DNA from: a virus
Length of the DNA: 54,360 nucleotides
Virus genome (UHGV): UHGV-1841366
Reading direction: 5' to 3' (one strand)
The first letter of the stretch is position 1, and each line of letters starts with the position of its first letter. The notes beneath the pieces are model-generated. The model worked only from the letters and a program-made list of their open reading frames with translations, was not told where the DNA came from and ran no database searches. The position numbers were made by a program, and so were the translations under genes. Shown here in pieces: positions 85-48,561 of this stretch.

Positions 85-97
85 AAACAATTTGTTT
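85..97. promoter_or_regulatory. palindromic motif AAACAA-N-TTGTTT (copy 1)
   Basis: Perfect 6-1-6 inverted repeat; same motif recurs at 136-148, 2561-2573, 19186-19198, 46517-46529, 48549-48561 and degenerate copies elsewhere. Confidence 0.5.
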
Positions 98-135
98 TCT
101 GCCTTTTGTTAATTGAGATAATAAGCCACATAAGA

Positions 136-148
136 AAACAAATTGTTT
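136..148. promoter_or_regulatory. palindromic motif AAACAA-N-TTGTTT (copy 2)
   Basis: Perfect inverted repeat, immediately upstream of GGAG and the ATG at 162. Confidence 0.5.
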
Positions 149-161
149 CGGAGTGGTTGAA

Positions 162-461
162 ATGTTGAACATTACCCAAGCCTACCAGGTGGCATTGATC
201 AGTTCATCTCATACATCAGAGGAAGATGCTCGCCGATTCATGATCGCAAGCAATGAGCTGGATTGGGTTTCGCAAATTGACGGCGGTTGTATTGTCCACG
301 CCGGGTTACAGGATGATGTCTGGAAAGACGACTTGCGTCGATATGGTATATCCGAAGGCGCGATTGCTAACATTCAGAAAGTACTTGATGTAGGCTTTGA
401 CTCTGTACATTTTGATTGTGGTGCGCCGGTCGTTGAAGGGCTTGAGTGCTGGAACTGGTAA
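162..461 (+). CDS. hypothetical protein
   Basis: ORF-track frame 153..461; ATG at 162 lies 9 nt after GGAG. No recognisable domain. Confidence 0.5.
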   Translation: MLNITQAYQVALISSSHTSEEDARRFMIASNELDWVSQIDGGCIVHAGLQDDVWKDDLRRYGISEGAIANIQKVLDVGFDSVHFDCGAPVVEGLECWNW

Positions 462-589
462 ATCTGCAAACAGATTCAAACCGTTGATAATGGCGGTCAC
501 AATTTGATTCTTTTCTATAAGAATCCGTTGATCGCCACTACTCCCCTTCCATATCTGCAATCACATCCTTAAATATCAATAAGTTATAG

Positions 590-1330
590 TTGTTTATACA
601 AACCAGAAAACAACTGAATAACAGATCAATGAAACCTCAACACTTTCACCCGATTTGGTCTAAAAAATTGACGTTTTCACACATCACTTCTTATACCCGC
701 AATTCTACGCAGCAGACAGCGCCACAGCGTCCAATTTTCACCACAGACGACTCAACACACTACCAACAAAAACACACGCTCAAAATCGCTCCCGTTGCGT
801 TACACAACCATATAAACAACTTATTTTCAGGAATAACAAAACAACTAAATAACACATGCGCCATTCCCAAAAACAACCAACCTCTTTATGGCAGGCTACC
901 GAAAAGACCCACCTCTTCTTCCCAGGCTACCGGACAACCAACCTAACTTTCACAGGCAATACGAAAACATTCATGCGCGCGATACCCACGACACGCCATT
1001 CCCCAAACAGCGAAGAAACACCAGAATCACTGAAACCCCAACGAAGCCTGTTACCGCAAGGATTCTCTCAATCCCAAAAGACACGAAACATAACAATCAC
1101 GGGAAACGCCATTACCCAATACACGAATAACCACAAAAGCCTTTCACACACTCCAGACAAACAACTCAAACACAATAACGAAAGGAATCGCCCACCTGCC
1201 ATTACTCCATACACGGAGAAAAACAATCACCAAAACGACGAGAACACCCCATAGAAGAACCACCGCAAAACGAACGAAACCATTTACACCGACAGAGAGA
1301 ACAACACACCCAATTCACCAACAGAATTAG
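590..1330. other. A+C-rich (G- and T-poor on + strand) non-coding region
   Basis: Hand counts on 60-nt lines give about 68-77 percent A+C. The three overlapping + strand ORFs here are explained by stop-codon depletion in AC-rich sequence. Confidence 0.6.
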
Positions 1331-1454
1331 TCGCCGTATAGAACGTTCTGGAAGGAGTGAGCATTAACGTCCATAGAGAGGTTGAGACAGATAAAACACG
1401 AAGAAAACACAACATGTATAGCGAAGAAGCCAGGTATGTATAAGTGGGGAGGGA

Positions 1455-1478
1455 AGGAGGGGTGTCGCCTCCTTTTTC
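1455..1478 (+). terminator. rho-independent terminator-like hairpin
   Basis: Stem AGGAGG / CCTCCT with 7-nt loop followed by TTTT; lies just after the A+C-rich region. Confidence 0.5.
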
Positions 1479-1545
1479 GTATTTATTCAACTCCTGATTT
1501 TATCCCCCGTAACACCCCTACGGTCAGCCTTCGGTCCATACAGGG

Positions 1546-1675
1546 GAAAGGCTGCATCCCGCTACAGAAACGGCTGGATTGCCTTCGGGGAACGGCTGGA
1601 GGCTTTCAGGGAGACGGTCGAGTTGCCTTTGTGGGTTTCGGGAAAAGGCTCGATGCCGGTTCAGGAACGGCGGCG
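1546..1675. repeat. iteron-like array, six imperfect GRAAMGGCYG repeats
   Basis: Copies start near 1546, 1567, 1589, 1610, 1642 and 1664; spacing 21-22 bp with one 32-bp step. Confidence 0.6.
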
Positions 1676-2039
1676 TACAGGTATAGCGAGAGGGAGAGTT
1701 GCGGCTACCCACCTGTAATGTGCGGGAAGAAGAGAGACGCTCACGTGCAGGTGAACTTACTTACCGCTGGATTCCCTCTGAATGCCCAGCTACAGCGTAA
1801 TTGTGCCAGACAGTCAGCGGGTCACAATCGATTTCAGTAGGTTTTCGGGGAGAGGATTATTCTGTCCACCAGCCACCTTCGGCCACTAAATCAGAATAAT
1901 GTAAAAAGTGTACTCGGTACTGAACCTGAAAAATCACTGCCAAAACCACATTCACCGGAATAAAATCCTTTTTCGCCTTTGCGTTATTGCGATAATAACA
2001 CCAACAAGAAAACAACGTGTTTAGGCAAAGGAGAAATAC

Positions 2040-2216
2040 ATGTACAGGCATCTGAATGTCAGTATCACCCTCGATGACGTTATCCACTCTCAGGATGTAG
2101 CTGGTCGCGTGGTGACGCTCATCTCTGAAGGATACAGAGAAGGGATGTTTGATTTCCATATCGAGGACAACCCAATGTCCGTCGCGTGGAACTGCACGAC
2201 GTCAGAAACAAAGTGA
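2040..2216 (+). CDS. hypothetical small protein (58 aa)
   Basis: Not in the ORF track (under 60 aa). ATG at 2040 is 6 nt after AAAGGAG; translated by hand to a TGA stop at 2214-2216; a degenerate palindromic motif lies upstream at 2010-2022. Confidence 0.4.
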   Translation: MYRHLNVSITLDDVIHSQDVAGRVVTLISEGYREGMFDFHIEDNPMSVAWNCTTSETK

Positions 2217-2226
2217 GGGTGAATAG

Positions 2227-2445
2227 ATGATTAAGATGCCTGTGATGGTTGAGGTGTGGAACGTGGATTCCCTGGCCGAGTGCCTGGATGCAGTGGGGCC
2301 GGAGCTGTATCGCAAATTGTGGTCGTTCGTCCCGGCTGAAGGGGAATCACCCAAAGGGAAGGAGATCTGGCACCTGCTCAGTGAAGATGAACAGCGGGAG
2401 CTGGTGGACGCGGTACACATTGAGTTCCCGGACGACGAAGATTAA
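2227..2445 (+). CDS. hypothetical acidic protein
   Basis: ORF track; GAGGGTG precedes the ATG; acidic C-terminus (FPDDED). Confidence 0.45.
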   Translation: MIKMPVMVEVWNVDSLAECLDAVGPELYRKLWSFVPAEGESPKGKEIWHLLSEDEQRELVDAVHIEFPDDED

Positions 2446-2560
2446 GAGTGAGGCCACCAGCACGGTGGCTTTTTGCTGTTTGCAACCTCCGGGGCAGCGC
2501 AGCGCCGTAACGCTATGCTTTGTAGCCTTTTTCTTACTGGTATTATTTACGCCATTGAGA

Positions 2561-2573
2561 AAACAAGTTGTTT
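2561..2573. promoter_or_regulatory. palindromic motif AAACAA-N-TTGTTT (copy 3)
   Basis: Perfect inverted repeat followed by ACGGAG and the ATG at 2585. Confidence 0.5.
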
Positions 2574-2584
2574 ACGGAGTTGTG

Positions 2585-2899
2585 ATGAAAAAATCATTGG
2601 TTCTTGGTCTGGACAAAGACCAGAAGAGAAAAGAGAAGCCTGCACTGGTTGCTCAATTAACTTTGCTGGACATCGTTGCCAATGGAACCTCTATTCGTCT
2701 GTTCCGTGAAACAGCGGTGTCTTTCGATAAAAACACCTTTACTCGTTATGTAATGAATGTTCGTCGCCAGCGTGGAAAAGGCTGGGTGGCATTTCAAAGA
2801 ATGTGGCCTGCACATCAGCTCGAGCTGGCTTTGATGGAAGTAAACCGCGTGGCCCAGCAAGAAATTCAGAGAGCATCAGTGATGGCAACAGCCTGGTAA
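2585..2899 (+). CDS. hypothetical protein
   Basis: In-frame internal start of ORF 2249..2899 (begins MKKSLVLGL); chosen because motif plus GGAG sit directly upstream and the longer N-terminus overlaps gene 2227..2445. Terminator follows. Confidence 0.55.
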   Translation: MKKSLVLGLDKDQKRKEKPALVAQLTLLDIVANGTSIRLFRETAVSFDKNTFTRYVMNVRRQRGKGWVAFQRMWPAHQLELALMEVNRVAQQEIQRASVMATAW

Positions 2900-2931
2900 T
2901 GTGCAAGTGGTAATTAGTCGACAGTACGACA

Positions 2932-2958
2932 GCCCCGACGTCCTTACGGGGCTTTTTT
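2932..2958 (+). terminator. rho-independent terminator
   Basis: GCCCCG / CGGGGC stem with 9-nt loop followed by TTTTTT. Confidence 0.7.
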
Positions 2959-3022
2959 GTATTGTAAGCACATACCTACGATCATAGAATAGAAAAATAA
3001 CTAATACACTACGGAGAGTGAA

Positions 3023-3418
3023 ATGACCGTTAAACGCGAAAAACTGACAGTTGATGTTTACTATGCCTCTGAAACCGCCGAAGGTAAGAATGTGGCAAAA
3101 ATTACCGTTGTTACGTACAACACCGAAACTGGTGCCGAAGTACAGGCCAGTACGATCGTGCGTAAAGGTGATGCCTCCGGCGGCGAGTACGCGACTCAAT
3201 ACCAGTCCATTCTCGATGCAACTGACCCGCTGCTGCTGAAAATCGAGAACTACTTCCGCCAGGTTGATGAAGAGGTGTTTGAAACCATGATGAATATGGT
3301 TAATTCCGTATTCACCTCCAGCCTGAACACCCGCACTACCTGGATTGGTCAGTACGGTCTGCGTATTACCTCCGGCATTCCTGCTGACACCTTAATCCCT
3401 GAAAGCGTATTCGCTTAA
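3023..3418 (+). CDS. hypothetical protein
   Basis: ORF track; ACGGAGAG upstream of the ATG; terminator downstream. Confidence 0.55.
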   Translation: MTVKREKLTVDVYYASETAEGKNVAKITVVTYNTETGAEVQASTIVRKGDASGGEYATQYQSILDATDPLLLKIENYFRQVDEEVFETMMNMVNSVFTSSLNTRTTWIGQYGLRITSGIPADTLIPESVFA

Positions 3419-3427
3419 TCCTCTTTA

Positions 3428-3455
3428 AATGGCGCGTAAACCTCGCCATTTTCTT
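3428..3455 (+). terminator. rho-independent terminator-like hairpin
   Basis: AATGGCG / CGCCATT stem followed by a T-rich run. Confidence 0.55.
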
Positions 3456-3535
3456 ATACCCGATAATAATTTGTTTTCTACCTTATCTGATTTGTGAAAA
3501 TGATTTCACTGAAGCAACTTAATAAGGAAAAAATC

Positions 3536-3910
3536 ATGGGACTTGATATCTACATCGAGACGCAGCCAAAAAACGATCTGAATAACGATACATCCAGATG
3601 GCAGGTTGGCTACTTCCGCAAGTTCAATGCGCTTGTATCGTGGGTGGAGAATAACGTTGGTATGGTTGAGAACTGTGAACTTGTGGAGCTTAACCGTGAG
3701 CATTTGCTGAAGCTGAAAGCAGACCTGGATTGTCTCAATAAAGAAAATTGCAGTGAAATAATGCCCACAATGGAAGGATTCTTTTTCGGCAGTCAGGAGT
3801 ACGACGACTTCTACTGGAGAGACGTGGATGAACTGAGAGAACTCACGGAACAGCTGATAGAGAATCACGATTTCGACAATAACAGACTGACGTTCTGCGC
3901 CTGGTGGTAA
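3536..3910 (+). CDS. hypothetical protein
   Basis: In-frame ATG (MGLDIYIE) of ORF 3494..3910 preceded by AAGGAAAAAA; the start at 3494 has no ribosome-binding site. Confidence 0.5.
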   Translation: MGLDIYIETQPKNDLNNDTSRWQVGYFRKFNALVSWVENNVGMVENCELVELNREHLLKLKADLDCLNKENCSEIMPTMEGFFFGSQEYDDFYWRDVDELRELTEQLIENHDFDNNRLTFCAWW

Positions 3911-3912
3911 AT

Positions 3913-4056
3913 ATGGGCGATTTCAAGAAAACCCTGAAGGAAAGAACCGAAATGGTCAGAAAGCAAAACGCCTCTTCTGTCATCAGATACGCAAGGCAGT
4001 TCAGCAAAAACAACAGACAGATTGAAGAGCAAATCAAATCAGTCATAGTCAGATAA
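3913..4056 (+). CDS. hypothetical small protein (47 aa)
   Basis: Not in the ORF track; ATG 3 nt after the previous stop, hand-translated to TAA at 4054-4056, followed by a strong terminator. Confidence 0.4.
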   Translation: MGDFKKTLKERTEMVRKQNASSVIRYARQFSKNNRQIEEQIKSVIVR

Positions 4057-4061
4057 GAAAC

Positions 4062-4104
4062 AGCGCCAGAAAAGCCAACGGGAGCGATTCTGGCGCTTTT
4101 TTTG
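4062..4104 (+). terminator. rho-independent terminator
   Basis: 9-bp stem AGCGCCAGA / TCTGGCGCT followed by TTTTTTT. Confidence 0.7.
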
Positions 4105-4221
4105 TTCTGGTGACAGGATTACTCCTGTCAGGGCTGTTTCTTTTGTTACAGACGCTATCATGAAGACAAAAAGAGAAGGAAGATCACTGATAGGTCTGGG
4201 AGTTACTTCAGTTTTAAAAAT

Positions 4222-4278
4222 GCCTGCTTCCGTATATATAAATAATAAGTAACTTAATAAATATATACGGAAGCAGGC
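4222..4278. repeat. long AT-rich-loop hairpin, copy A of three
   Basis: GCCTGCTTCCGTATATAT ... ATATATACGGAAGCAGGC; near-identical copies at 19067-19122 and 47623-47669. Confidence 0.7.
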
Positions 4279-4530
4279 ACTGTTAAGACTCCAGAAGTGA
4301 GCAAAAATCAACCTAAAAAGACACTGAACTCACCAGAATAAACTTAACCAGCCAGTACAGGCGCTGAAGTCTTCCGTAGCAGGCATCAAAGGGAATTTCG
4401 TTAAGGTACTTCAGCATAGGGTGGATGGATATCAAACCGTATGTGTATTGCCTCTCGTTTGATGCCTCCTGAAGCACCTTTAAAAGTTTTTTAAAAGCGC
4501 TACAATGACTATCAGATAAGAGGAGGTTTT

Positions 4531-4782
4531 ATGAGCTATCAAATTCTGACGACGACAGCAGCCAGCATTACTGAGCTGAAAAGAAACCCTATGGGCACTG
4601 TAGCTGAAGGTGAGGGGGAGGCCGTCGCAATCCTGAACCGGAATGAACCCGCGTTTTACTGTGTCCCACCAGAACTTTATGCCTACTATCGGGAACTCGC
4701 CGAGGACGCTGAACTTAACGCGATTGCAGATGAAAGAATGAAAGAACCGGACATTGTGAAGGTTAACCTGAATGACCTATGA
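4531..4782 (+). CDS. type II antitoxin, RelB/StbD-like
   Basis: 83 aa; overlaps the downstream RelE-like gene by 11 nt; C-terminus (DAEL...VKVNLNDL) resembles the RelB C-terminus as I remember it; GAGGAGG ribosome-binding site. Confidence 0.6.
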   Translation: MSYQILTTTAASITELKRNPMGTVAEGEGEAVAILNRNEPAFYCVPPELYAYYRELAEDAELNAIADERMKEPDIVKVNLNDL

Positions 4783-5053
4783 GCTGGCATTTGAACGCAG
4801 GGCACTGAAAGAATGGCAGAAGCTCGGCCACACTGTTCGTGAACAATTCAAAAAGAAGCTGTCAGAGCGCCTGAAAAATCCACATGTCCCCGCAGCCAGG
4901 CTATATGGTCATACTGACCGTTACAAAATTAAGCTTCGCGCATCCGGTTACAGGCTCGTTTATCAGGTAATTGATGAGAAGGTTGTTTTGCTTGTCATTG
5001 CTGTAGGAAAAAGGGAAAGCAGCGAAGTCTATCACACGGCTGATACTCGTTAG
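4772..5053 (+). CDS. relE: type II toxin, RelE/ParE superfamily
   Basis: 93 aa; the stretch YKIKLRASGYRLVYQVIDEKVVLLVIAVGKRESSEVY closely matches the E. coli RelE sequence as I recall it (not database-checked). Confidence 0.7.
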   Translation: MTYELAFERRALKEWQKLGHTVREQFKKKLSERLKNPHVPAARLYGHTDRYKIKLRASGYRLVYQVIDEKVVLLVIAVGKRESSEVYHTADTR

Positions 5054-5100
5054 CAAAGTGCGCCTTATATCCTCGCCTGTTGACTAAATCTCATAATAAC

Positions 5101-5314
5101 CTGAGGTCAATTTCTTCTGTTTGTGACCTCAGGTTAATTTCCTTTATTTATAACCTTAACTTATTAGGCTGCATTTTATTCCGCGTCATCGCTTCATTAT
5201 TTATGTATATGGCGACCTTATTTAATTACGCCCACCTGAACTTACTTCTTTTCCGCCTGTTTCATTCAGCGATAATTAACGCATCGAAACGAAACTAAAC
5301 GAAAGGAGTTAAAA
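5101..5314 (+). promoter_or_regulatory. leader region duplicated upstream of 6217 (copy 1)
   Basis: Perfect inverted repeat CCTGAGGTCA/TGACCTCAGG at 5101-5134, then a block about 85 percent identical to 6143-6216 ending in the ribosome-binding site and ATG. Confidence 0.55.
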
Positions 5315-6034
5315 ATGAGTGCGCGTCTTAAGAAGCTTATCAAAAAGCGTAAATCTCTTAAAGAACATGCAGAATTGATAAATTTAATTGAAAAACGTTT
5401 TCCAGTCATTTCGGATATTGAGGACTTCTATTGGGTGGAGAAATGTAAAGTTTGGGATGGCATTGATGATGTAAAAGATGTGGATGATTTTGTCAGCAAG
5501 TACAACCCAGACATTAACTACAAACTAGCTGATGATTTTGCTGGCTCGTCTAAAGATGATCCGCTTCCTGATTGGTTTAACATTGATGATTATCCTAGTT
5601 GCATGTGTACCACCTACACCAACAAAGATTTTAGTAAAGCGTGGTTTGCTATTGCTTATGGCTGTTATTTCAATAAGTCCGACGGAAGCAAAAGACCATA
5701 TTTTCTCGCTGAAATAGACTTAACCAGCGGAGAGATTACAGTACACGAAAACCACAGGAATCTAATGAAGCTTGTTGATAGCGTTCGCGTACTGGATACA
5801 GACGCCCAGCAATTAACGAACAATGCATGGTTCGGACTTGATGGAGTAAAAGGGGGTATCGAACTGATAATGGGTCATCTTTTAAATGAATACTCGGACT
5901 GGTATCATCCGCCACACAATCCGCTTGAGTCATTTGACGATCCGCTTGAGCCATTTGACGATCCGCTGAAGGACTACATCGATGAACCAATATATATGAT
6001 GGAATCTTTTCAATTAGATATGATTCCAGCATGA
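5315..6034 (+). CDS. hypothetical acidic protein, paralog of 8730..9377
   Basis: 239 aa, very D/E-rich; shares the block AWF..(16-18 aa)..LAEIDL(T/L)SG(E/K)ITV and a C-terminal LEPLESF/PLESFDD motif with the minus-strand protein at 8730..9377. Confidence 0.55.
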   Translation: MSARLKKLIKKRKSLKEHAELINLIEKRFPVISDIEDFYWVEKCKVWDGIDDVKDVDDFVSKYNPDINYKLADDFAGSSKDDPLPDWFNIDDYPSCMCTTYTNKDFSKAWFAIAYGCYFNKSDGSKRPYFLAEIDLTSGEITVHENHRNLMKLVDSVRVLDTDAQQLTNNAWFGLDGVKGGIELIMGHLLNEYSDWYHPPHNPLESFDDPLEPFDDPLKDYIDEPIYMMESFQLDMIPA

Positions 6035-6039
6035 CAAAC

Positions 6040-6070
6040 GCCACCAGTTAACGCTGGTGGCTTCAAGTTT
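6040..6070 (+). terminator. hairpin containing a Chi octamer
   Basis: GCCACCAG / CTGGTGGC stem, then TTCAAGTTTT; GCTGGTGG at 6053-6060. Confidence 0.45.
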
Positions 6071-6077
6071 TGCTCTC

Positions 6078-6216
6078 ATCACCTCAGGTCAAATTTCCTC
6101 GTTTGCAACCTCAGGTCAATTTAAGAATGATATCACCTGTATCCCTGAACTTACTTCTTTTCTGCCTGTTTCATTCAGCGATGATTATTACATCGAAAAC
6201 AAACGAGGAATTAAAA
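6078..6216 (+). promoter_or_regulatory. leader region duplicated upstream of 5315 (copy 2)
   Basis: Direct repeats ACCTCAGGTCAA at 6081-6092 and 6107-6118; block homologous to 5236-5314. Confidence 0.55.
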
Positions 6217-7143
6217 ATGAAACCAGTATTTTTGGGGCGAATTGATATTAGTGAATTGTTTTCAGTTAGAGATGGGTTCCAATATGACTGTGATTGCCTT
6301 GAACTTAATGGTCTTGAACGTGAATACAGATTGGCTATTGTGAATGATGGTAAGAAGACATTTTCTGTCGAATGTTTTGAAAATACTTACTTTAAGCAGG
6401 TGTTGAGAATAAGACAGCATGTGGAGATGTCAATTCGGGAAAACATCAAAAATAAATGTGAGTTTCTTGTGGTTAAAAATGAAGCAGATGAAATAAACTT
6501 TGTTACGTTCACTGATAGTGGTCGATTGGCTATGCTGGAGCTATTTCAGCTGATCGTTTCTAATAACAGTATAACAGAAGCCTTGAACAGTCTTTCAACT
6601 ATAGTATCAAGAGAAAGAGAAAACACTGGCGCTTTAATTGTAGAGGAGCTAGATGGAATACTCGAGAAGATCAAGAATAAAGAGCTGATTATAGAATATG
6701 GCAAGGAAAGTAGGAAAAATAATTTACATTCAGCTTTTCACTCCCCATATGTTGAGCGTTTGAATGGTTTGGCTGCTTTTGTTAATTTGGACTTTAATAG
6801 ATTTTTTAGTTCTTTTTTTACAGAGTGTGGGCTTGTTATTGTTGAGGTAAATAATGAGAACGATGTCCCCAAAATTATAGTACATTCGATGCCTGATATA
6901 TCTCTCAATGAAATTGGGGACAAACTGGAGAATTTATACGATGTAAAAAGCATGGAAGAACTCATAGAGTATCTGGCCATAAATGCGGTAGCCATGGCTG
7001 ATAATGATGTGTTTGGGGTTGGTGCACTGCATGAAGGTTTTCTTGACGCCCTTGAGCTTTACGGGACTGCTCGCTGGTTTCTGTCAGGATTAGTGGATGA
7101 TGCACCTTTACTCATCAATACAGATTATTTTTATTCCAGTTGA
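6217..7143 (+). CDS. hypothetical protein
   Basis: In-frame ATG (MKPVFLGRI) of ORF 6070..7143 preceded by GAGGAATTAAAA; the upstream part of the ORF lies in the duplicated leader. AT-rich. Confidence 0.5.
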   Translation: MKPVFLGRIDISELFSVRDGFQYDCDCLELNGLEREYRLAIVNDGKKTFSVECFENTYFKQVLRIRQHVEMSIRENIKNKCEFLVVKNEADEINFVTFTDSGRLAMLELFQLIVSNNSITEALNSLSTIVSRERENTGALIVEELDGILEKIKNKELIIEYGKESRKNNLHSAFHSPYVERLNGLAAFVNLDFNRFFSSFFTECGLVIVEVNNENDVPKIIVHSMPDISLNEIGDKLENLYDVKSMEELIEYLAINAVAMADNDVFGVGALHEGFLDALELYGTARWFLSGLVDDAPLLINTDYFYSS

Positions 7144-7346
7144 AAACAAGGCCACCACTGCTGGTGGCCTTAAATGACCATCCTGTCTCCCGCAGGCTAA
7201 AAACACCAACCTCTTACCTCCAGGCAACCGACAAACCCACCTGTTCCCGTCCGGCTACCGCAACTTTCCACTTTGACGCCTTATTCGTACAACCATAATT
7301 AACACCAACAAGAGAACAATTTGTTATTTAGAATAAGGAATCAATC

Positions 7347-7829
7347 ATGAATTTTATCGCTACTGTAAACGCACCCGCACATGGCAATATCGCTGTAACG
7401 TTCTCTGACACTGAAAAACGAGTACTTGGTGCATGGCGCGACAATGAGACGGTAGAACTGTCAGCACAAGAAAAATGCATTATTGCACGCGACATCATTG
7501 GCAATCGTCGTTACTCGCGGGTATTTGAGAAAGCGTATGTGGTAAATTCTGGGTTCGGAACGTTCGTCTTTCCGGTGCGCTCCGGGCGATTCTGCCAGTC
7601 CAAGCTGATTGAGTTCGCTACGCAGATTTCTGTCTGGATTAAAACTCAATCGTCGTTCAAATTTTCCGACGATGAAGCAGTATCGCAGGGGATGCGGATC
7701 GCCAACAATGCAATTAAATGCAAAAACATTACGTATACCGCTGGCGTTGACACATGGAGACTGTTTTGCGCTAACTTTATGCTGAATGTATACGCAAGCA
7801 ACCGCATCCACATCCTTGATGGCGTGTAA
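7347..7829 (+). CDS. hypothetical protein
   Basis: ORF track; AAGGAA ribosome-binding site; variant palindromic motif at 7314-7326 upstream; terminator downstream. Confidence 0.55.
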   Translation: MNFIATVNAPAHGNIAVTFSDTEKRVLGAWRDNETVELSAQEKCIIARDIIGNRRYSRVFEKAYVVNSGFGTFVFPVRSGRFCQSKLIEFATQISVWIKTQSSFKFSDDEAVSQGMRIANNAIKCKNITYTAGVDTWRLFCANFMLNVYASNRIHILDGV

Positions 7830-7838
7830 CTGAGAAGA

Positions 7839-7860
7839 GGGCCAGAAACGGCCCTTTCTC
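7839..7860 (+). terminator. rho-independent terminator
   Basis: GGGCC / GGCCC stem with AGAAAC loop followed by TTTCTCT. Confidence 0.6.
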
Positions 7861-7955
7861 TATAGCCACCAGCTGCCGCAGGGAAATTTTCAGAAACGGC
7901 TAGGAACGCATTCATGAGCCGACGGGAAACGGCCAGGATTTTTTCGGGAAACGGC
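7845..7955. repeat. cluster of four GAAACGGC repeats
   Basis: GAAACGGC at 7845, 7893, 7926 and 7948 (last two 22 bp apart), flanked by a 9-bp inverted repeat CCACCAGCT (7866-7874) / AGCTGGTGG (7989-7997). Confidence 0.5.
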
Positions 7956-8365
7956 TACATTTGCCTTTATGTAGAAAAAACATCGGGAAGCTGGTGGAAT
8001 CCAATCAGCGGTTGTCGGACAGGTGAGCGGGGAAAATCATTATGACTCTCGTCACCTGAGACATCCAGATTTCTTTCATAGCGTAATCACATACGTGATT
8101 AAGTGGTGTGATTATGTGAAAAATCACGCGCACATAATACGCGAGCGGATACGGAACAAAACAAAATGCAGATTCGCGCCGACAAATAAACGCGGATCAT
8201 AAAGCAAGACTAAAAGCCAATGATTAACTATGCGCTATAGCGCAATATAACGCATTTTAAGCGCGTTAATGTGTTAAGTAATGGGTATGTACTGGCAAGG
8301 ATATAAAAGCGCGTCCATGGCGTTATTTTGGCGCTTATTTTTATGTTGTTGGAGTGAGTTAAAGA

Positions 8366-8391
8366 CAATAAAAAAGCGCCATCATTGGCGC
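8366..8391 (-). terminator. rho-independent terminator (minus strand)
   Basis: GCGCCA / TGGCGC stem with 4-nt loop; on the minus strand it is followed by a T-run (complement of AAAAA at 8371-8375). Confidence 0.55.
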
Positions 8392-8414
8392 GTTATGGTG
8401 GGAGTATTGGAAAC

Positions 8415-8439
8415 GAAAAAAGCGCCCATAGTGGGCGCT
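8415..8439 (-). terminator. rho-independent terminator (minus strand, possibly bidirectional)
   Basis: AGCGCCCA / TGGGCGCT stem; T-run on the minus strand; just downstream of the stop of the minus-strand gene 8445..8675. Confidence 0.6.
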
Positions 8440-8444
8440 CGATT

Positions 8445-8675
8445 TTATTTATGTAAACTGATTTCAAATCCCATTTCTACAAACGCTTTTAACATTAAAA
8501 ATATATCAGCGTCGTTCACGTCTGCTTTTTTCCGCTCCTGGTCGCTCAATAAGTCAATTTTGCGCGTCGTTTCGTCTATAAGCTCGACTGCGCGCCCAGC
8601 GTAACCAGCGATCCCAGCGATGCGATTAACATAATATTCATTATGGACGTTAACGCCAGCGATTAAAATAATCAT
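8445..8675 (-). CDS. hypothetical protein
   Basis: ORF track; AAGGAG about 10 nt upstream of the ATG on the minus strand. Confidence 0.5.
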   Translation of the reverse strand: MIILIAGVNVHNEYYVNRIAGIAGYAGRAVELIDETTRKIDLLSDQERKKADVNDADIFLMLKAFVEMGFEISLHK

Positions 8676-8696
8676 GCTTTAAAAACTCCTTTAAAT

Positions 8697-8714
8697 GCGC
8701 CCATATTTGGGCGC
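8697..8714. repeat. 18-bp palindrome GCGCCCATATTTGGGCGC (copy 1)
   Basis: Identical 18-mer at 9451-9468; each lies just downstream of a minus-strand gene stop. Confidence 0.6.
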
Positions 8715-8729: not shown

Positions 8730-9377
8730 TTATTCAAAATATGGAAATGCAGAATTTTCTTCATGATCTAATACGAAAGTTTTTTCATTAATATAATTTG
8801 GCGCATTATCGCCAAATGATTCTAGTGGTTCGAGATGATTGAAATCATCTTTTTTAATAAAGTAGGATATATAATAGATACCATCGTGTAAATCAGCCAA
8901 ACCACACCAAATATAATAGCCAATAGGATAACATGCAGGACCACGATTCACATAAACTGTAATTTTTCCGCTTAATAAATCCATCTCAGCAAAAAAAGCT
9001 AATCCGCTTTTTTCCTCTTCTCCTTCTTTTTCTCTGATTTTTCCGTTTAGAACGTCAGCACTTTGAATAAACCACGCTCTAGTAAAATCCGCGTTAACAT
9101 ATGTAGCAAATTCGCCAAAGTCGCAATTTTTGCGCAAGTTGGGTAAATCCTCGATTAAATCGAGATTGATATTTAATTGCGCTGTATTTTCAGCAATAAT
9201 TAGCTCTGCTTTCGTTAATTCCGTGTTATTAAATTCTGGCTTTTTTTCTGGTAATTTGTGCACTACTTCTTTGATTTTGTCAGCGAATTTAATTTTTGAT
9301 TTAATCAATGGAAGACGAGATTCAGCCATCTCTACGAAAGCAGAGATAAAAGATTCGCAAACAGTAAAAGTTTTCAT
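8730..9377 (-). CDS. hypothetical acidic protein, paralog of 5315..6034
   Basis: 215 aa; shared sequence blocks with 5315..6034 (see there); AT-rich. Confidence 0.55.
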   Translation of the reverse strand: MKTFTVCESFISAFVEMAESRLPLIKSKIKFADKIKEVVHKLPEKKPEFNNTELTKAELIIAENTAQLNINLDLIEDLPNLRKNCDFGEFATYVNADFTRAWFIQSADVLNGKIREKEGEEEKSGLAFFAEMDLLSGKITVYVNRGPACYPIGYYIWCGLADLHDGIYYISYFIKKDDFNHLEPLESFGDNAPNYINEKTFVLDHEENSAFPYFE

Positions 9378-9450
9378 ATTAAATTCCTCAATTAAAATCT
9401 GAACCAGATGAATAAAGCTAATATTAGCTTTATTCCGAGTTTTATCTCAT

Positions 9451-9468
9451 GCGCCCATATTTGGGCGC
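9451..9468. repeat. 18-bp palindrome GCGCCCATATTTGGGCGC (copy 2)
   Basis: Identical to 8697-8714; a 24-bp perfect palindrome AATAAAGCTAATATTAGCTTTATT lies next to it at 9409-9432. Confidence 0.6.
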
Positions 9469-9481
9469 TTGATTCCATTAA

Positions 9482-10132
9482 TTACGCTTTAAAAGCATCA
9501 GCTAGATAATTGTAGAAATCTTTTTTAATGAAGCGATATTGTTGAGTACCAGCTTTGGCGCTTCCCATTCCTTTGACTTTCTCAACAAGTCCGAGACGTT
9601 CGCAAAGATTGATTAGCTGGTTAGCTTGAGTATAGCCAGCGTCTAAGCGTAAATCATTTGCTCGCTTAACTTCATTCATTAAATCAAAAACAGCGCCATT
9701 AGTAAAAACTTCTACTTCGTCTTTGATCATGTGAACAAGTGCAAACACGCGTGATCCGCTCATATCGTCTTTGGAGTACTCGCATTTACCAGCTTTGATA
9801 GATTTAACCAGATAAACTAATTTTTCCAGTGAGTAACTGTTAGTCATCGCTTCGCGGAAAAACACTTCTGGTGCTTGTTTGCTTGCTTTAATCGCAAAGT
9901 AAAACACAGCAGACAATTTTTCGTCGTTAACAGCAGACAAAATGTTATTAGAGAAATATTTTAACTTTGTAGAAGCAGCGCGAAGATTATCTTTATCGTT
10001 TTTGGTCAGCGCGCCAGTGCTATTAAGAAGTTCATTCTTTTGCCCCAAGTCGTTAGCTTTTGCACCCAGCTCAGCAGCAACAATATTAGCAGCTTCAACG
10101 ATGTTTTTTTTAGATAATATAATGTTGGTCAT
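9482..10132 (-). CDS. hypothetical protein
   Basis: ORF track, 216 aa; no confident domain. Confidence 0.5.
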   Translation of the reverse strand: MTNIILSKKNIVEAANIVAAELGAKANDLGQKNELLNSTGALTKNDKDNLRAASTKLKYFSNNILSAVNDEKLSAVFYFAIKASKQAPEVFFREAMTNSYSLEKLVYLVKSIKAGKCEYSKDDMSGSRVFALVHMIKDEVEVFTNGAVFDLMNEVKRANDLRLDAGYTQANQLINLCERLGLVEKVKGMGSAKAGTQQYRFIKKDFYNYLADAFKA

Positions 10133-10423
10133 GATTTCAATCCTTAGATCAAATTAGAAAATTTATTTCGTTCTATCGTTAGCGTGTTCGCTTTCGACGA
10201 GTTCAATTATCGATACGCAAAAAAAGATTGCAAGTGTTTTTTCTTAGTTTTTTACAGGGACGAAAGTCCTAGAAATAAAAGCGAGATCGTCGAAGGTGTT
10301 CCCTAAATAAATAATCTACTCCGGCTTTTAACCTTATATATTTATACGGAGTGGAATAGGGGGTATTAAATGAATGGCGTGTAAAATAATAACCGGACTT
10401 AGCCGGTTATTACCCTTATAGAT

Positions 10424-10987
10424 TTAAAATGGAAGGATTCGGTCAACCCAATCGAAGAGAACAATCATTCTTGCATGTTCCCTGATTTTCATCGTCACCT
10501 GACAAGCATCAACGCCTAACGACACTCCCTCTATTTCACGGCCATCCGCCATGTAGACCCTTATAGATCTGCCGTTTTGATGAGCTTTGCGACATATCTT
10601 AAAAAAGTCACGACGTGATGGCTGGTTGTTCACGTAGTCAGGATGTACGGTAAGCCTGTCCGCAAAGTCCCCATCTACTTCTGGAGGTATAATCGTTTCT
10701 ATAGAGCTAACTTTCCCAAGAGGAAGACGAACTCGACGCTCTTTGCTTCTTGGAACGGGTGATAGATCAAGTTTGTTGCGTGATGGTAGTGTTCCCTGTA
10801 CATACATGTTGAATACCTGTCCATCTTCCATCGTGACTTTTACAGGAACAGAGTGTGCCCTCCAGAACATCAAGGTATGTTCCACATTAGAATAGTCTCG
10901 CGGCCATACTTCAGCCGGTATGCCGTATGTAATATCTTTCGTCGTCATATCATTATAAAGTGGTTGGCAATATGTCCATTGTACCAT
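10424..10987 (-). CDS. hypothetical protein
   Basis: ORF track, 187 aa; overlaps the upstream lipoprotein gene by 35 nt, so the true start may be the internal ATG at 10948; no clear ribosome-binding site for either. Confidence 0.4.
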   Translation of the reverse strand: MVQWTYCQPLYNDMTTKDITYGIPAEVWPRDYSNVEHTLMFWRAHSVPVKVTMEDGQVFNMYVQGTLPSRNKLDLSPVPRSKERRVRLPLGKVSSIETIIPPEVDGDFADRLTVHPDYVNNQPSRRDFFKICRKAHQNGRSIRVYMADGREIEGVSLGVDACQVTMKIREHARMIVLFDWVDRILPF

Positions 10988-11372: not shown

Positions 11373-11388
11373 ATTTGTCTGACTATGA

Positions 11389-11940: not shown

Positions 11941-11978
11941 CTCCGGTTCTTAAGCATAGATAAGCCTACAAAATTAAT

Positions 11979-19122: not shown

Positions 19123-19185
19123 TTAATAAGACATGCCCAGATTCAATTAAACACACCAGTAAACAAGTTGGTTAATAGATGCAGT

Positions 19186-19198
19186 AAACAAGTTGTTT
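19186..19198. promoter_or_regulatory. palindromic motif AAACAA-N-TTGTTT (copy upstream of terS)
   Basis: Perfect copy; variant copy at 19161-19173; followed by palindrome GAGCGC-ATGGAC-GCGCTC and the ATG at 19239. Confidence 0.5.
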
Positions 19199-19238
19199 TA
19201 GAGCGCATGGACGCGCTCTATGTGTTTTAGAGGGATCT

Positions 19239-40695: not shown

Positions 40696-40788
40696 TAGTA
40701 GAAAAAAAAATTTATATCGGTAAAAATAAGTAGGTATTTACTTTGTGGTGGGCAAGAATAGCCCACCAAAACAAGGAGCATATTCAAC

Positions 40789-45969: not shown

Positions 45970-45976
45970 GAGTAAA

Positions 45977-46516: not shown

Positions 46517-46529
46517 AAACAAGTTGTTT
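46517..46529. promoter_or_regulatory. palindromic motif AAACAA-N-TTGTTT (copy upstream of parA)
   Basis: Perfect copy 36 nt upstream of the parA start. Confidence 0.5.
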
Positions 46530-46564
46530 CAGACGATAATTATATACGCAAAGGGAACTCTCCA

Positions 46565-47233
46565 ATGACCAAGATCTTTGTGGTTGGCGGCACAAAGGGC
46601 GGGCCTGGCAAATCCACCGTTGCCCAGCAAATTGCCGTTTGCCTGAAAGTCAAAAAGAAGAAGAAGGTTTATATCACTGATATAGATATTCAGCGCACGA
46701 CAACAAGCTGGTGTGAAGACCGTCGACAGAACGAAGACCTTGAGCTGATTCCTTTTGCATACGTTCAGGATGACATCATTAAGCACCTAAAATCACTTCA
46801 GGGTAGAGCTGAGTTTGTAGTGGTAGATGCTGGTGGCTTTGACTCCGAAATTCAGCGACAAGCGATGCTGATGGCTGACGTTATCATTATCCCGCTTCGT
46901 CCTAAGCGTCGTGATTTGAAATCTCTGCGTGACATCGATCCTATTATCGACAATGTTCGTAATGTAAACGATAAAGTGAAGGTCCGCGCGGTCATGAACC
47001 AGTGCCCGGCTTTGCCATCACAAGTGTCTCGCATTCTGGCGGCTAAAGAGATTGTCGAGACGTTTGGCATCGAGTCTGCGCCTGTCAATCTATATAACCG
47101 CAACGTCTACGATGATGCGGAAGAGTCTGGTCGTTCTATCTTTGAAATGACCGGTAGCGAGCGCGACAAAAAGGCGGAAGCCGAGTTTGAAGAATTTGTA
47201 GATTATCTGTTGAGTCTGGAGGAAGAAGAATAA
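46565..47233 (+). CDS. parA: ParA-family partition ATPase (small, type Ib-like)
   Basis: 222 aa; deviant Walker A GGTKGGPGKST; no N-terminal DNA-binding extension. Confidence 0.75.
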   Translation: MTKIFVVGGTKGGPGKSTVAQQIAVCLKVKKKKKVYITDIDIQRTTTSWCEDRRQNEDLELIPFAYVQDDIIKHLKSLQGRAEFVVVDAGGFDSEIQRQAMLMADVIIIPLRPKRRDLKSLRDIDPIIDNVRNVNDKVKVRAVMNQCPALPSQVSRILAAKEIVETFGIESAPVNLYNRNVYDDAEESGRSIFEMTGSERDKKAEAEFEEFVDYLLSLEEEE

Positions 47234-47592
47234 TGTCCATGAAAATGGGTGACCTAGCAAAGCGCAAAGAGCCTGATGCACCGGCTAAGAACACAACTCC
47301 TTTGCGCCAACCAGTCAGACCACAGGGACGCCCGACTCGTGGCAAAGAGAAAATTAAAAGCCGCACAATGTCACTGGAAGACGAATACTTCGAACTGCTG
47401 GAGATGATGAAGTTCATCCCTCGTTTCGAGAAGTTCACCCGTTCTGACGTGATTCGAGCAGCTATTTTCCATCTGGCAGAGAAGTCACCGCAGGAAATCG
47501 AGGACATCGTGAAACTTAACGAGGCGATCACAGCTGCCGACGTTACTATGCGTACCGATGAAATCAAGCGAGAACTCATGAAAAAAGGCTGA
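47233..47592 (+). CDS. ParG-like small centromere-binding protein (putative)
   Basis: 119 aa translationally coupled to parA (TAATG); basic disordered N-terminus and short C-terminal helical region. Confidence 0.5.
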   Translation: MSMKMGDLAKRKEPDAPAKNTTPLRQPVRPQGRPTRGKEKIKSRTMSLEDEYFELLEMMKFIPRFEKFTRSDVIRAAIFHLAEKSPQEIEDIVKLNEAITAADVTMRTDEIKRELMKKG

Positions 47593-47622
47593 CAACTTCC
47601 GGTCTGGCAGCTTCAATCAGAA

Positions 47623-47669
47623 CCTGTTTCTGTATATAAATAATAAGTAACTTATTAAATATATATATA
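47623..47669. repeat. long AT-rich-loop hairpin, copy C
   Basis: CCTGTTTCTGTATATAAATAATAAGTAACTTATTAAATATATATATACGGAAGCAGG; shorter and more diverged than A and B. Confidence 0.65.
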
Positions 47670-47763
47670 CGGAAGCAGGTCTTTTAAAAGACACCCACCA
47701 GAACAACTCCCTTCCGTTTTCACTTCCAAAAACTGACACCAGTCGCTATCATCTGCTCATTGT

Positions 47764-47785
47764 GATAAGTAAGTAACTACCTACC
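47764..47785. promoter_or_regulatory. GATAAGTAAGTAACTACCTACC motif
   Basis: Member of the TAAGTAA/TACCTA motif family; 12 nt upstream of the ATG at 47797. Confidence 0.45.
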
Positions 47786-47796
47786 AGGTGAGCCAC

Positions 47797-48537
47797 ATGA
47801 GCCAAATCTTTTTCGACACAATCGACAACGACCAGTACGACTTCATGACAGAGTGGAATACCGCTGTTATGGACAAGTGGGTTGCTGAAAACATTGGTTT
47901 GTCGCGCTGCAAAGACGAGGCTGAACTCTTCTATACGAAGTGGTTTGATTACCGCGACATGCATCCTCTTATGGCTACCTGTCTGTTTACGGAGGCATAC
48001 AAACGTCAGTACTCAAATATCATGCTGACGCACGGTCGCGAACACTTTGAAACAGCTCCGTTTACCACCGGGTTAAAACGCCTGCCTTATCAGGAGTTGT
48101 CGACTGCCAATAAAACGTCGCTATGGAAAGCACGCCAGTTTGCTGACCGCTATTGCTGCTCATACGACTACTTTATCTCCACCGTGCTTTCCGCAGCTGC
48201 ACGACGTCTGTGGGACAAGCTGCCTCGCCCACAACATTTGTGGCAGCCAGAACTGATTGAGATATTTGAAGAGAAATTAGCCAGGCGCGCAACAACCCGT
48301 CTGGATGACTCTCTGGTTAGCTTTAAGCATATGGGAGACATGCAGTTCAACCCGATCCAGGAAAGCTATTTTGAGTGGATTCTGGAGCGTTTACGCACCA
48401 TCCCCCGCAGCAAGCGCATACGCGCAATTTTCTCCGCTATCTGGCTAATGGAAATCGTTCCAGAGCGCCTTATTTCCGCCCACTTTCCAGAAGAACTGGA
48501 AGAAGCACGGCGGTTTATTGATCCCCTATCTAATTAA
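47797..48537 (+). CDS. hypothetical protein (replication-module position)
   Basis: In-frame ATG after AGGTGAG; 246 aa; upstream of the helicase; no motif recognised. Confidence 0.5.
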   Translation: MSQIFFDTIDNDQYDFMTEWNTAVMDKWVAENIGLSRCKDEAELFYTKWFDYRDMHPLMATCLFTEAYKRQYSNIMLTHGREHFETAPFTTGLKRLPYQELSTANKTSLWKARQFADRYCCSYDYFISTVLSAAARRLWDKLPRPQHLWQPELIEIFEEKLARRATTRLDDSLVSFKHMGDMQFNPIQESYFEWILERLRTIPRSKRIRAIFSAIWLMEIVPERLISAHFPEELEEARRFIDPLSN

Positions 48538-48548
48538 CTAATACTAGA

Positions 48549-48561
48549 AAACAATTTGTTT
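48549..48561. promoter_or_regulatory. palindromic motif AAACAA-N-TTGTTT (copy upstream of helicase)
   Basis: Perfect copy 20 nt upstream of the ATG at 48581. Confidence 0.5.

Follow-up and report, generated by a model that had tools for sequence, protein, structure and literature searches.

The window analysed here, a stretch of 54,360 nt, covers roughly half of an SSU5-like phage-plasmid from E. coli. These widespread and clinically relevant elements are among the commonest extrachromosomal elements in E. coli, Klebsiella, Salmonella and Yersinia. In the plasmid collection alone, more than 900 related records can be found, some of which carry CTX-M beta-lactamases, and pHCM2 (S. Typhi) and pMT1 (Y. 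pestis) belong to the SSU5 supergroup. In the literature searched, no repressor or operator was reported for SSU5-type phage-plasmids, and no description of the motif AAACAA-N-TTGTTT was found. As seen in Table 1, copies of this 13-bp palindrome lie ahead of early genes, terS, parA and a DnaB-like helicase gene.

Table 1. Palindromic sites, neighbouring promoter elements and candidate binder genes of the window
Feature	Position	Strand	Description
Perfect palindrome AAACAATTTGTTT	85..97	.	Upstream class (U); ends 19 nt before -10 hexamer 117-122
Extended -10 element TGaGATAAT	114..122	+	Between putative operators 85-97 and 136-148, 51 bp centre to centre
Perfect palindrome AAACAAATTGTTT	136..148	.	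Downstream class (D); starts 13 nt after -10 hexamer
One-mismatch copy AAACAACTTATTT	814..826	.	Perfect orthologues SSU5 90740, pJN2-26 25869
Promoter-operator module (putative)	1988..2022	+	TGcGATAAT (1988-1996), 13 nt, AAACAACGTGTTT (2010-2022, 1 mismatch), RBS, ATG 2040
Promoter-operator module (putative)	2538..2573	+	TGgTATTAT (2538-2546), 14 nt, perfect AAACAAGTTGTTT (2561-2573), GGAG, ATG 2585
Upstream-class module	3464..3501	+	TAATAATTTGTTT (3464-3476, 2 mismatches), 19 nt to hexamer, TGtGAAAAT (3493-3501)
Promoter-operator module (putative)	7294..7326	+	CATAAT (7294-7299), 14 nt, GAACAATTTGTTA (7314-7326, 2 mismatches), RBS, ATG 7347
FljA-family protein, candidate binder 2	10424..10987	-	Pfam Flag1_repress; phrog_1444 'transcriptional repressor'
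Tandem pair before terS	19161..19198	.	AAACAAGTTGGTT (19161-19173, 1 mismatch) and perfect AAACAAGTTGTTT (19186-19198), 25 bp centre to centre
GC hairpin TAGAGCGCatggacGCGCTCTA then TGTGTTTT	19199..19228	+	Directly 3' of putative terS operator, 5' of terS RBS; z = -2.2
Perfect palindrome	46517..46529	.	35 nt 5' of parA start (46565); preceded by ...ataAGA
Orphan 119-aa protein, candidate binder 1	47233..47592	+	Directly after small ParA (parA 46565-47233)
Perfect palindrome	48549..48561	.	19 nt 5' of DnaB-like helicase start (48581)

Number and background frequency of the copies

All six perfect copies of AAACAA-N-TTGTTT lie where the original prediction placed them, starting at 85, 136, 2561, 19186, 46517 and 48549. 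The number expected in the window is 0.00 from dinucleotide shuffles and 0.025 from a Markov-1 model. The enrichment is several hundred-fold. Complete relatives hold 9-11 perfect copies per genome compared to about 0.03 expected, and 17-20 copies with at most 1 mismatch compared to about 0.5 expected. The comparison with a background model, which had been proposed as a check, gave a motif frequency above expectation in the window as well as in whole genomes. Only the 1-nt spacer occurs, and AAACAA/TTGTTT pairs with a spacer of 0, 2 or 3 nt were not found in the window.

When up to 2 mismatches are allowed, the pattern by itself is hardly more frequent in the window than expected (15 found, 6.1 expected); therefore, mismatch copies need other support. 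For the four degenerate copies listed originally, at 2010, 3464, 7314 and 19161, this support is provided by geometry and by orthologues in Cyrano, SSU5 and pJN2-26, some of which are perfect. The orthologues of site 7314 are perfect at SSU5 94525 and pJN2-26 29082, and that of site 3464, at Cyrano 97190, has 1 mismatch. One further copy, 814-826, had been overlooked; its surroundings are A/C-rich and G-poor, without a clear promoter. All supported sites are intergenic and ahead of + strand genes. The hits with 2 mismatches at 12961, 14199, 49964 and 50759 are without promoter context and are probably due to chance.

Spacing to promoters and conservation among relatives

The sites keep a fixed relation to extended -10 promoters (TGnGATAAT) without a -35 box, and according to their position they can be divided into 2 classes; neither the promoter class nor the position classes had been noted in the original prediction. 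Sites of the downstream class start 13-14 nt after the hexamer, and those of the upstream class end exactly 19 nt before it. Where both are present, they are 51 bp apart, as at promoter 114-122, which drives gene 162-461 (DUF5983, Pfam) and was not called by a sigma-70 consensus scan because it has no -35 box. Counted from transcription starts inferred via the -10 elements, the centre of site 85-97 is at about -38, overlapping the -35 position, and that of site 136-148 is at about +14, with 13 nt from the end of the site to ATG 162. Orthologues of site 85-97 are located at Cyrano 93114, SSU5 88319 and pJN2-26 24759. The upstream-class module 3464-3501 drives gene 3536-3910. A terminator-like hairpin (2450-2472) can be seen just 5' of the module at 2538-2573.

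Measured over 485 non-redundant contexts, the extended -10 element is separated from a site behind it by 13 nt (132 contexts), 14 nt (54) or 12 nt (32), and a site ahead of the hexamer is separated from it by 19 nt (68) or 20 nt (15). The two gap classes contain 57 and 34 distinct spacer sequences, including those of a diverged subclade with unrelated spacers. Compared to this rigid spacing, the distance from site to ATG is loose (11-40 nt in the downstream class). The original prediction placed nearly all sites 10-50 bp ahead of a + strand start codon, and this applies to the downstream class; the upstream-class sites 85 and 3464, at 59-64 nt, fall outside it.

The promoter modules share a spacer consensus (aACaCCAACAAGA; TCTgCCTTTT), and part of the rigid spacing is therefore inherited via cassette duplication and not independent. 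The whole motif might even be part of a duplicated promoter/leader cassette with no dedicated binder, in which an A/C-rich and then U-rich unstructured leader would aid initiation or ribosome loading and would have spread with the early units. The spacer and -35-region consensus of many modules shows common ancestry, and the leaders are unstructured. However, sites are also present at unrelated promoters (parA, helicase, cobT, nrdB and terS) with otherwise dissimilar flanks, the upstream-class copies fall outside the leader, and conservation is far stronger in the palindrome than in the remaining cassette. Nor would it account for a symmetry that is perfectly two-fold while the centre base is free, and an origin of this kind is scarcely probable.

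Orthologous sites precede terS, parA, helicase, cobT, nrdB, tciA and early genes in Cyrano, SSU5 and Klebsiella pJN2-26. At these promoters the arms are kept, with the central base free (T, A or C at the helicase site among the window, SSU5 and pJN2-26) and the flanks diverged. The parA and helicase sites persist where the upstream regions are unrelated in sequence, and the parA site is retained in the elements L115 and L118 despite diverged upstream sequence. The tandem pair before terS is kept in Cyrano, SSU5, Kluyvera and Y. pestis; pJN2-26 has a single copy. The GC hairpin that follows this pair looks like a terminator or attenuator of the late-operon leader.

Outside this clade, a different distribution was found. 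The sister-clade Providencia plasmid (38% GC) is more AT-rich and has 0 copies of the palindrome, indicating that the enrichment is not compositional, and in Morganella and Xenorhabdus no palindrome was found before terS. This also bears on whether the element exploits the site of a host protein, IHF-like or another chromosomal regulator. A loose likeness to the IHF core is present on both strands (AAACAA-N4-TTT against WATCAA-N4-TTR, 2 of 9 positions differing). Nevertheless, a universal factor would serve the Providencia, Morganella and Xenorhabdus relatives too, yet these are without the motif, and G10 and C4 are strongly conserved though they lie in an unspecified part of the IHF site. We know of no enterobacterial regulator with an AAACAA-N-TTGTTT consensus, and a host binder is regarded as highly improbable.

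Proposed dispersed operators and candidate binders

The enrichment, the footprint, the clade restriction, the lock to the -10 element and the low expression in a lysogen make the binding site of a dimeric regulator over a gene set, as originally proposed, the best-supported reading. With a probability of about 0.65, the palindrome is a dispersed DNA operator of an element-encoded repressor; protein binding, repression and the identity of the binder are what we infer. Short early units and the parA, helicase, cobT, nrdB, tciA and terS/late operons would be driven by extended -10 promoters without a -35 box, and a symmetric protein encoded by the element would bind AAACAA-N-TTGTTT at either of the 2 positions. 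Bound at +8 to +20, it may block open-complex formation or promoter escape, and also read-through from the upstream unit; bound at -44 to -32, it would cover the -35 position. The tightest promoters would be those with both sites. At 51 bp (about five helical turns) these would be on the same face, and the bound proteins might then cooperate or form a loop. As long as the element is a plasmid prophage, about 15-20 promoters would be kept low, and loss of the protein would open them together. The results point to at least two separate dyad regulons in the element and so to a tiered transcription programme. What is gained is an operator consensus, a promoter class, a list of putatively controlled operons and a short list of candidate binders.

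In RNA-seq data from an LF82 lysogen, 13 of the 15 genes directly behind sites are at 5.7-12.9, with a background median of 9.8 (PMC9928086, S1 table), and the parA operon is at 50-89 despite its perfect site (PMC9928086). Since most prophage genes are silent in lysogens anyway, low expression fits the proposed repression but does not discriminate.

The 119-aa protein is tentatively put forward as the first candidate for the binder. Its gene lies directly 3' of a small Walker-type parA, with the palindrome at 46517 in the promoter of the operon, which matches the omega/ParG arrangement. Within the clade, conservation is 91-100% for this protein (98% for its C-terminal 96 residues) compared to 83-91% for ParA, and the 119-aa gene is expressed at 89 in the LF82 lysogen (PMC9928086). 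Slightly more doubtful as the binder is the FljA-like protein, whose match to Pfam PF03614 (E = 1.3e-70) is above the curated cut-off. Its gene was found in every palindrome-bearing genome examined and was undetected in Providencia and Morganella, and it is the only annotated repressor-family protein confined to the palindrome clade. The chance that the binder is some other protein is close to even. The 88-aa protein 18776-19042, offered in the original prediction as an example of a possible binder, proved a poor candidate, being kept in palindrome-free relatives and silent in the lysogen (7.8, where the background is 9.8). ParB1 and ParB2 are also unlikely binders, as they are present at 33-71% identity in palindrome-free relatives and silent in the lysogen (5.0 and 9.5).

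An operator at the RNA level must be weighed here, in which the FljA-like protein would read the motif with an A-rich 5' extension (AAGAAAACAA-N-UUGUUU) in the leader and repress translation or destabilise the mRNA, as FljA does on fliC. A one-base loop hairpin is sterically impossible, and in the predicted folds the two arms are never paired, with leader z-scores (-0.7 to +0.5) no better than those of shuffles. The downstream-class sites are at the 5' end of predicted leaders, 0-25 nt from the Shine-Dalgarno sequence, and the conserved AGA extension is on one side only, both of which would suit RNA recognition; however, such recognition does not need exact dyad symmetry, and the distance to the start codon varies. 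The upstream-class sites, with their rigid 19 nt to the -10 element, follow a terminator and precede the next promoter, a position in which a signal on the mRNA would be of little use. As to the protein itself, the distribution of its gene matches that of the palindrome, and its C-terminal half gives sub-threshold profile hits to Sm G, Hfq and SH3-like barrels (E 0.06-1.2); against this, it is just 58-78% identical among genomes with invariant sites, and its structure model is unusable (pLDDT 39). The window resembles the FljA system in encoding a strong family member, and the classical fliC 'operator' is between promoter and Shine-Dalgarno sequence. For the FljA family, post-transcriptional action on fliC mRNA is reported (PMC2652032), which speaks for an RNA operator and against a DNA operator. 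Neither AAACAA-N-TTGTTT nor anything similar is present in the fliC leader of E. coli K-12. Taken as a whole, an RNA operator is improbable.

The palindromes could also be centromere-like sites that primarily load partition machinery, either ParA with the 119-aa protein or ParB-like proteins, with a secondary effect on transcription. Scattered partition sites have precedents in the sopC-like repeats of N15 and the O_B sites of RK2. The perfect copy at the parA promoter, the position of the 119-aa gene after a small ParA, where a centromere-binding protein would be, and its conservation and expression in the lysogen are in line with this role, and the 6-N-6 13-bp format is that of KorB O_B. A lock to -10 elements at +14 or -38, however, suits transcription control and not partition, and the centromere could equally well be a 57-bp hairpin present in three copies, one of them immediately behind the par operon. 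Moreover, the O_B consensus is absent, and the ParB-like proteins are retained where the palindrome is missing and are silent in the lysogen. A primary role in partition is quite improbable.

It is unlikely that the 119-aa protein has two functions, binding the centromere for partition and acting as master lysogeny repressor throughout the SSU5 supergroup. If true, about 20 promoters would be held via the palindrome by this protein, and a single protein from a fold family not seen before would govern both plasmid segregation and phage immunity. The enterobacterial clade alone would then have acquired the ancestral par-locus site at early, replication and late promoters.

Comparison with known systems

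Dispersed operators of the proposed kind resemble those of P1 C1, where a phage living as a plasmid repeats one operator at many dispersed promoters, including the replicative-helicase gene and the gateway to late functions, and one protein holds the lytic programme. Unlike the 13-bp perfect dyad at +14 or -38 of extended -10 promoters found here, the P1 operators are 17-bp, asymmetric and monomer-bound, and the C1 consensus ATTGCTCTAATAAATTT is not enriched in the window (1 hit at 3 mismatches, 0.32 expected).

The KorB/O_B system of IncP-1 plasmids such as RK2 also has 6-N-6 13-bp sites with a variable centre, around a dozen per replicon, at replication, partition and other promoters. KorB is a ParB-family partition protein doubling as a global repressor. 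The O_B sequence is unrelated, however, and KorB also acts from a distance, unlike the promoter-locked sites of the window. The O_B sequence TTTAGCSGCTAAA occurs at chance level (2 hits at 2 mismatches, 1.5 expected), and among ParB1 and ParB2 of the element no ParB-family binder with a distribution matching the sites was found.

The stoperators of L5 gp71 in cluster A mycobacteriophages are again 13-bp sites, with about 20-30 genomic repeats in short intergenic gaps ahead of genes. They can stop transcription entering from upstream and also repress promoters. In contrast to the true palindrome fixed to a -10 element, they are asymmetric, orientation-dependent and mostly without a promoter.

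Omega of pSM19035 and ParG of TP228 are small ribbon-helix-helix centromere-binding proteins that repress several promoters. The 119-aa protein is like them a small protein with a basic flexible N-terminus, encoded beside a small ParA, and its predicted binding sequence would be found in the promoter of its own operon as well as in others. The centres of the half-sites are 7 bp apart, like the omega heptads.

Occurrence and distribution of the palindrome

The window is 92-94% identical in DNA to the Escherichia phages CMS-2020a, PhiR41_1 and Cyrano, ~84% to Salmonella phage SSU5 and ~79% to Klebsiella phage-plasmids, and its replication end is matched by >900 plasmid records. These matches indicate that it represents roughly half of an SSU5-type phage-plasmid. 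Apart from the early and accessory blocks (see the table), it carries UvsW, an operon of two ParB-like proteins, an ABC-ATPase and an 88-aa protein, the terS/terL, head, tail and lysis genes, parA with the gene of a 119-aa protein (p119), and helicase, primase and ligase genes.

The palindrome AAACAA-N-TTGTTT occurs in 6 perfect copies in the window, and the coordinates in the original prediction proved exact, all without mismatch. As it had supposed, the motif is more frequent than expected from background, since a first-order Markov model predicts 0.025 perfect copies and none was found in 100 dinucleotide-preserving shuffles. The hexamers AAACAA (n=42) and TTGTTT (n=26) pair 6 times with their starts 7 nt apart and never at a neighbouring spacing. 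With up to 2 mismatches, 15 copies were found versus 6.1 expected; this is little enrichment for the pattern alone, and degenerate copies therefore need to be judged by context. Context bore out the 4 degenerate copies already proposed and supports a fifth that had been overlooked; 4 further two-mismatch matches lack such support.

Three complete relatives, Cyrano, SSU5 and the Klebsiella element pJN2-26, were assembled and scanned. Perfect copies number 9, 11 and 11, respectively, and copies with at most 1 mismatch 18, 20 and 17, against expectations of ~0.03 and 0.5. Orthologous sites precede terS, parA, the DnaB-like helicase gene, cobT, nrdB, tciA, a DNA methylase gene and small early genes; between orthologues, the central base is free to change and the flanks have diverged. 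In other elements (L115-L118), the palindrome is kept at parA and the helicase gene though the upstream regions are otherwise unrelated to those of the window.

The limits of the motif were mapped with TerL-anchored relatives. It is present in Kluyvera and Yersinia pestis elements, absent before terS in Morganella and Xenorhabdus (TerL 82%), and found in 0 copies in a complete Providencia plasmid of the same sister clade with 38% GC. These absences show that its enrichment is neither compositional nor universal in the family. No recurring dyad takes its place in Providencia, half-sites in direct or everted order show no enrichment in Providencia, Cyrano or SSU5, and a viral scan returned only chance single matches outside SSU5-type contigs. 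Three SSU5-type contigs (L015, L019, L028) are filed in MAGs named Bacillota, Candidatus Fimivivens and Chloroflexi; these labels are probably binning errors and not true hosts, because the TerL proteins are 57-96% identical to those of enterobacterial elements.

Features of the window and their coordinates
Feature	Coordinates	Remark
Small early genes	1-8.6 kb	block
Accessory block	8.7-13.2 kb	low GC, minus strand, with FljA-like gene
Degenerate palindromes, proposed originally	2010, 3464, 7314, 19161	starts
Degenerate palindrome, overlooked	814	
Two-mismatch matches without supporting context	12961, 14199, 49964, 50759	
Second dyad AAGTA-N6-TACTT	15834-15849, 22633-22648, 40728-40743, 51202-51217	before ParB-like operon, head gene, tail-fibre gene, gene after primase
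~57-bp hairpin element	4222-4279, 19067-19123, 47622-47680	early region; just upstream of terS operators; directly after parA/119-aa operon
GC hairpin with T-run	19199-19228	between terS operator pair and terS ribosome-binding site
88-aa protein	18776-19042	
p119	47233-47592 (+)	after small ParA
Minus-strand block	8730-13166	GC 37-40%
FljA-like gene	10424-10987 (-)	in minus-strand block
HNH-domain protein	12186-13166	in minus-strand block
A/C-rich, G-poor stretch	~500-1250	dubious ORFs
tRNA cluster	54114-54360	window end; Asn-GTT, Tyr-GTA, Thr-TGT

Promoter geometry and nature of the signal

According to their position relative to the -10 hexamer, the sites can be divided into 2 classes. In class D, 13-14 nt, usually ending in AAGA, separate an extended -10 (TGn with GATAAT, TATTAT, GAAAAT or CACAAT) from the palindrome, behind which lie a Shine-Dalgarno sequence and then the start codon. 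In class U, the palindrome comes first, separated from the hexamer by exactly 19 nt (consensus TCTgCCTTTTnTTAnnTGn). If the hexamer is placed at -12 to -7, the sites are centred near +14 (D) and -38 (U). A tally of 485 non-redundant contexts from 100 loci gave D gaps of 13, 14 and 12 nt in 132, 54 and 32 contexts (57 distinct spacers at 13-14 nt) and U gaps of 19 and 20 nt in 68 and 15 (34 distinct spacers at 19 nt); these are not fully independent observations, because many modules share a spacer consensus and so descend from a duplicated cassette. A diverged subclade retains the 19- and 13-nt gaps with unrelated spacer sequences. The three promoter-proximal bases are also conserved, with AGA before 113 of 141 D sites and the complement TCT (or TAT) after 46 of 49 U sites, and the distal side is free. 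Double-site promoters, with their sites 51 bp apart, are seen in the window (85/136), in SSU5 (88319/88370) and twice in pJN2-26. Lacking a -35 box, these promoters were not picked up by a sigma-70 consensus scan; in extended -10 promoters the TG motif is known to allow function without that box, which would explain how they can work.

A hairpin element is excluded: a loop of one base is too small for the two arms to pair, and the structures predicted for five leaders show no pairing between the arms and no more stability than those of shuffled sequences. Recognition of the mRNA by a protein is possible for class D, where the site precedes the Shine-Dalgarno sequence, but is unlikely as an account of the whole set: the exact dyad is left unexplained, U sites fall outside the leaders, and the spacing is rigid to the -10 yet loose to the ribosome-binding site, with 11-40 nt from palindrome to start codon. 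These features favour a DNA operator, for which a probability of roughly two in three can be given.

The early region (1-8700) contains 21 terminator-like hairpins versus 8.3 expected, and this excess indicates a chain of short promoter-operator-gene-terminator units, in which the small early genes make up many separate transcription units. Several U sites are located between such a hairpin and the next promoter. Upstream of terS, two copies 25 bp apart are directly followed by a GC hairpin with a T-run. This conserved hairpin resembles a terminator or attenuator placed within the late-operon leader, which, if true, would imply antitermination control of the late operon. In Cyrano, the annotated start codons of CYRAN_105 and CYRAN_110 (45805 and 47903 of sequence L002) lie inside or upstream of the palindrome. 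These starts were probably mis-called, because starts with a proper ribosome-binding site are found 12-19 nt after it, at 95826 and 97972 of the Cyrano genome.

Per-gene RNA-seq of Cyrano in an LF82 lysogen has a background median of 9.8 (PMC9928086, S1 table). According to these values, 13 of 15 genes behind sites are at background (5.7-12.9), including terS (7.1), the double-operator gene CYRAN_101 (7.5), tciA (7.0), cobT (7.8), CYRAN_58 (5.7) and nrdB (12.9); exceptions are parA (50), helicase (21) and CYRAN_111 (25.5). The low expression fits repression in the plasmid state, but as evidence it is weak: for most phage genes, silence in a lysogen is the rule anyway. The A/C-rich stretch, in a region with a GC skew of -0.12 (1-2000), had no Rfam match; its Cyrano counterpart, 'CYRAN_102', is expressed at 57 in the lysogen against the background of 9.8, and the stretch could be a non-coding transcript.

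Candidate binders and known systems

For the 88-aa protein, offered originally as an example binder, no favourable evidence was found, and it was dismissed as the binder acting in the lysogen. It has no Pfam match, its gene is silent there (7.8), and it is conserved together with its operon down to alphaproteobacterial relatives without the motif; the whole UvsW-ParB-ParB-ABC-ATPase module also exists in palindrome-free relatives. The two ParB-like proteins are kin to KorB by ParB family, which speaks for them, but like the 88-aa protein they are conserved in motif-free relatives and silent in the lysogen. CYRAN_45, an HTH protein beside the integrase with a lysogen expression of 96, was taken for the master repressor in the LF82 study (PMC9928086). 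It was set aside, being absent from SSU5 (20 sites) and having a different palindrome of its own, GGTAAGTGCTTACC. This perfect palindrome lies at the start of the CYRAN_45 gene (Cyrano sequence L001, 42606-42619, outside the window), with additional GGTAAG/CTTACC half-sites nearby. It probably serves this putative repressor itself as operator and would thus be the third regulatory dyad of such elements.

The FljA-like gene exists in every motif-bearing genome examined, was not detected in Providencia or Morganella, and its product is labelled a repressor family. Against it stand a conservation of 58-78% and weak expression in LB (18). The FljA family is reported to act on fliC mRNA (PMC2652032), and the motif is absent from the fliC leader. 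All 80 of 80 IMG/VR loci are SSU5-type, with none in independent phage backgrounds, and a single-sequence structure model was unusable. The protein is 68% identical to that of Cyrano, versus >92% DNA identity of the surrounding backbone, and the minus-strand block around it is poorly conserved even with the closest relatives.

In p119, identity across the clade is 91-100%, and 98% over the last 96 residues, compared with 83-91% for ParA. Its invariant blocks are retained in 48-64% variants that still carry the palindrome, its own promoter holds a perfect site, and its lysogen expression is 89. Against its candidacy, the most conserved block, IKSRTVSMEDEY, is also present in a homologue (33% identical) from a palindrome-free Providencia genome, and p119 could instead target the 57-bp hairpin element that directly follows the operon. 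Neither Pfam nor the solved structures gave a match to p119. Its Cyrano counterpart, CYRAN_29, is annotated 'RelE/ParE putative toxin'; the gene is at the position expected of a centromere-binding protein, and the label looks wrong.

In its operation the set would resemble regulons under a global repressor, as known from plasmids and plasmid prophages (P1 C1, KorB, omega, ParG, L5 stoperators), but by sequence it is not a member of any of them. Operators are scattered over the genome as in P1, but the C1 consensus is at chance level in the window. KorB acts with twelve 13-bp O_B palindromes, and their consensus is likewise at chance level. An RHH fold, as in omega and ParG, is not supported for p119. 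Mycobacteriophage L5 stoperators are similar as a global-repressor regulon, not in sequence. The searchable literature on SSU5-type elements mentions no operator or repressor.

Other elements of the window

A second, unrelated dyad, AAGTA-N6-TACTT, which defines a regulon of its own, immediately follows a -10-like hexamer (TATAAT, GAAAAT or TAAAAT) ahead of four other operons in the window, where AAGT-N8-ACTT is found 5 times versus 1.05 expected. Orthologous copies exist in Cyrano, SSU5 and pJN2-26. Distant TerL relatives, ranging from Photobacterium to Methylocystis and all without AAACAA-N-TTGTTT, have 5-13 copies per 21 kb of the dyad core AAGT-N8-ACTT (AAGTCA-N4-TGACTT). This recurrence indicates that the second-dyad system is ancient in the family. 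AAACAA-N-TTGTTT was added later and is particular to the enterobacterial clade.

The Rfam search detected only tRNAs. At the position corresponding to the window's tRNA cluster, Cyrano has tRNAs for Asn, Thr and Ser, which shows that close relatives differ in their tRNA sets. Kluyvera, Y. pestis and pJN2-26 likewise carry the ~57-bp hairpin element, CCTGCTTC(C/T)GTATATAT - aaataaTAAGTAACTTAataa - ATATATACGGAAGCAGG, before terS; it may act as a centromere, as a pac-related site or as a bidirectional terminator.
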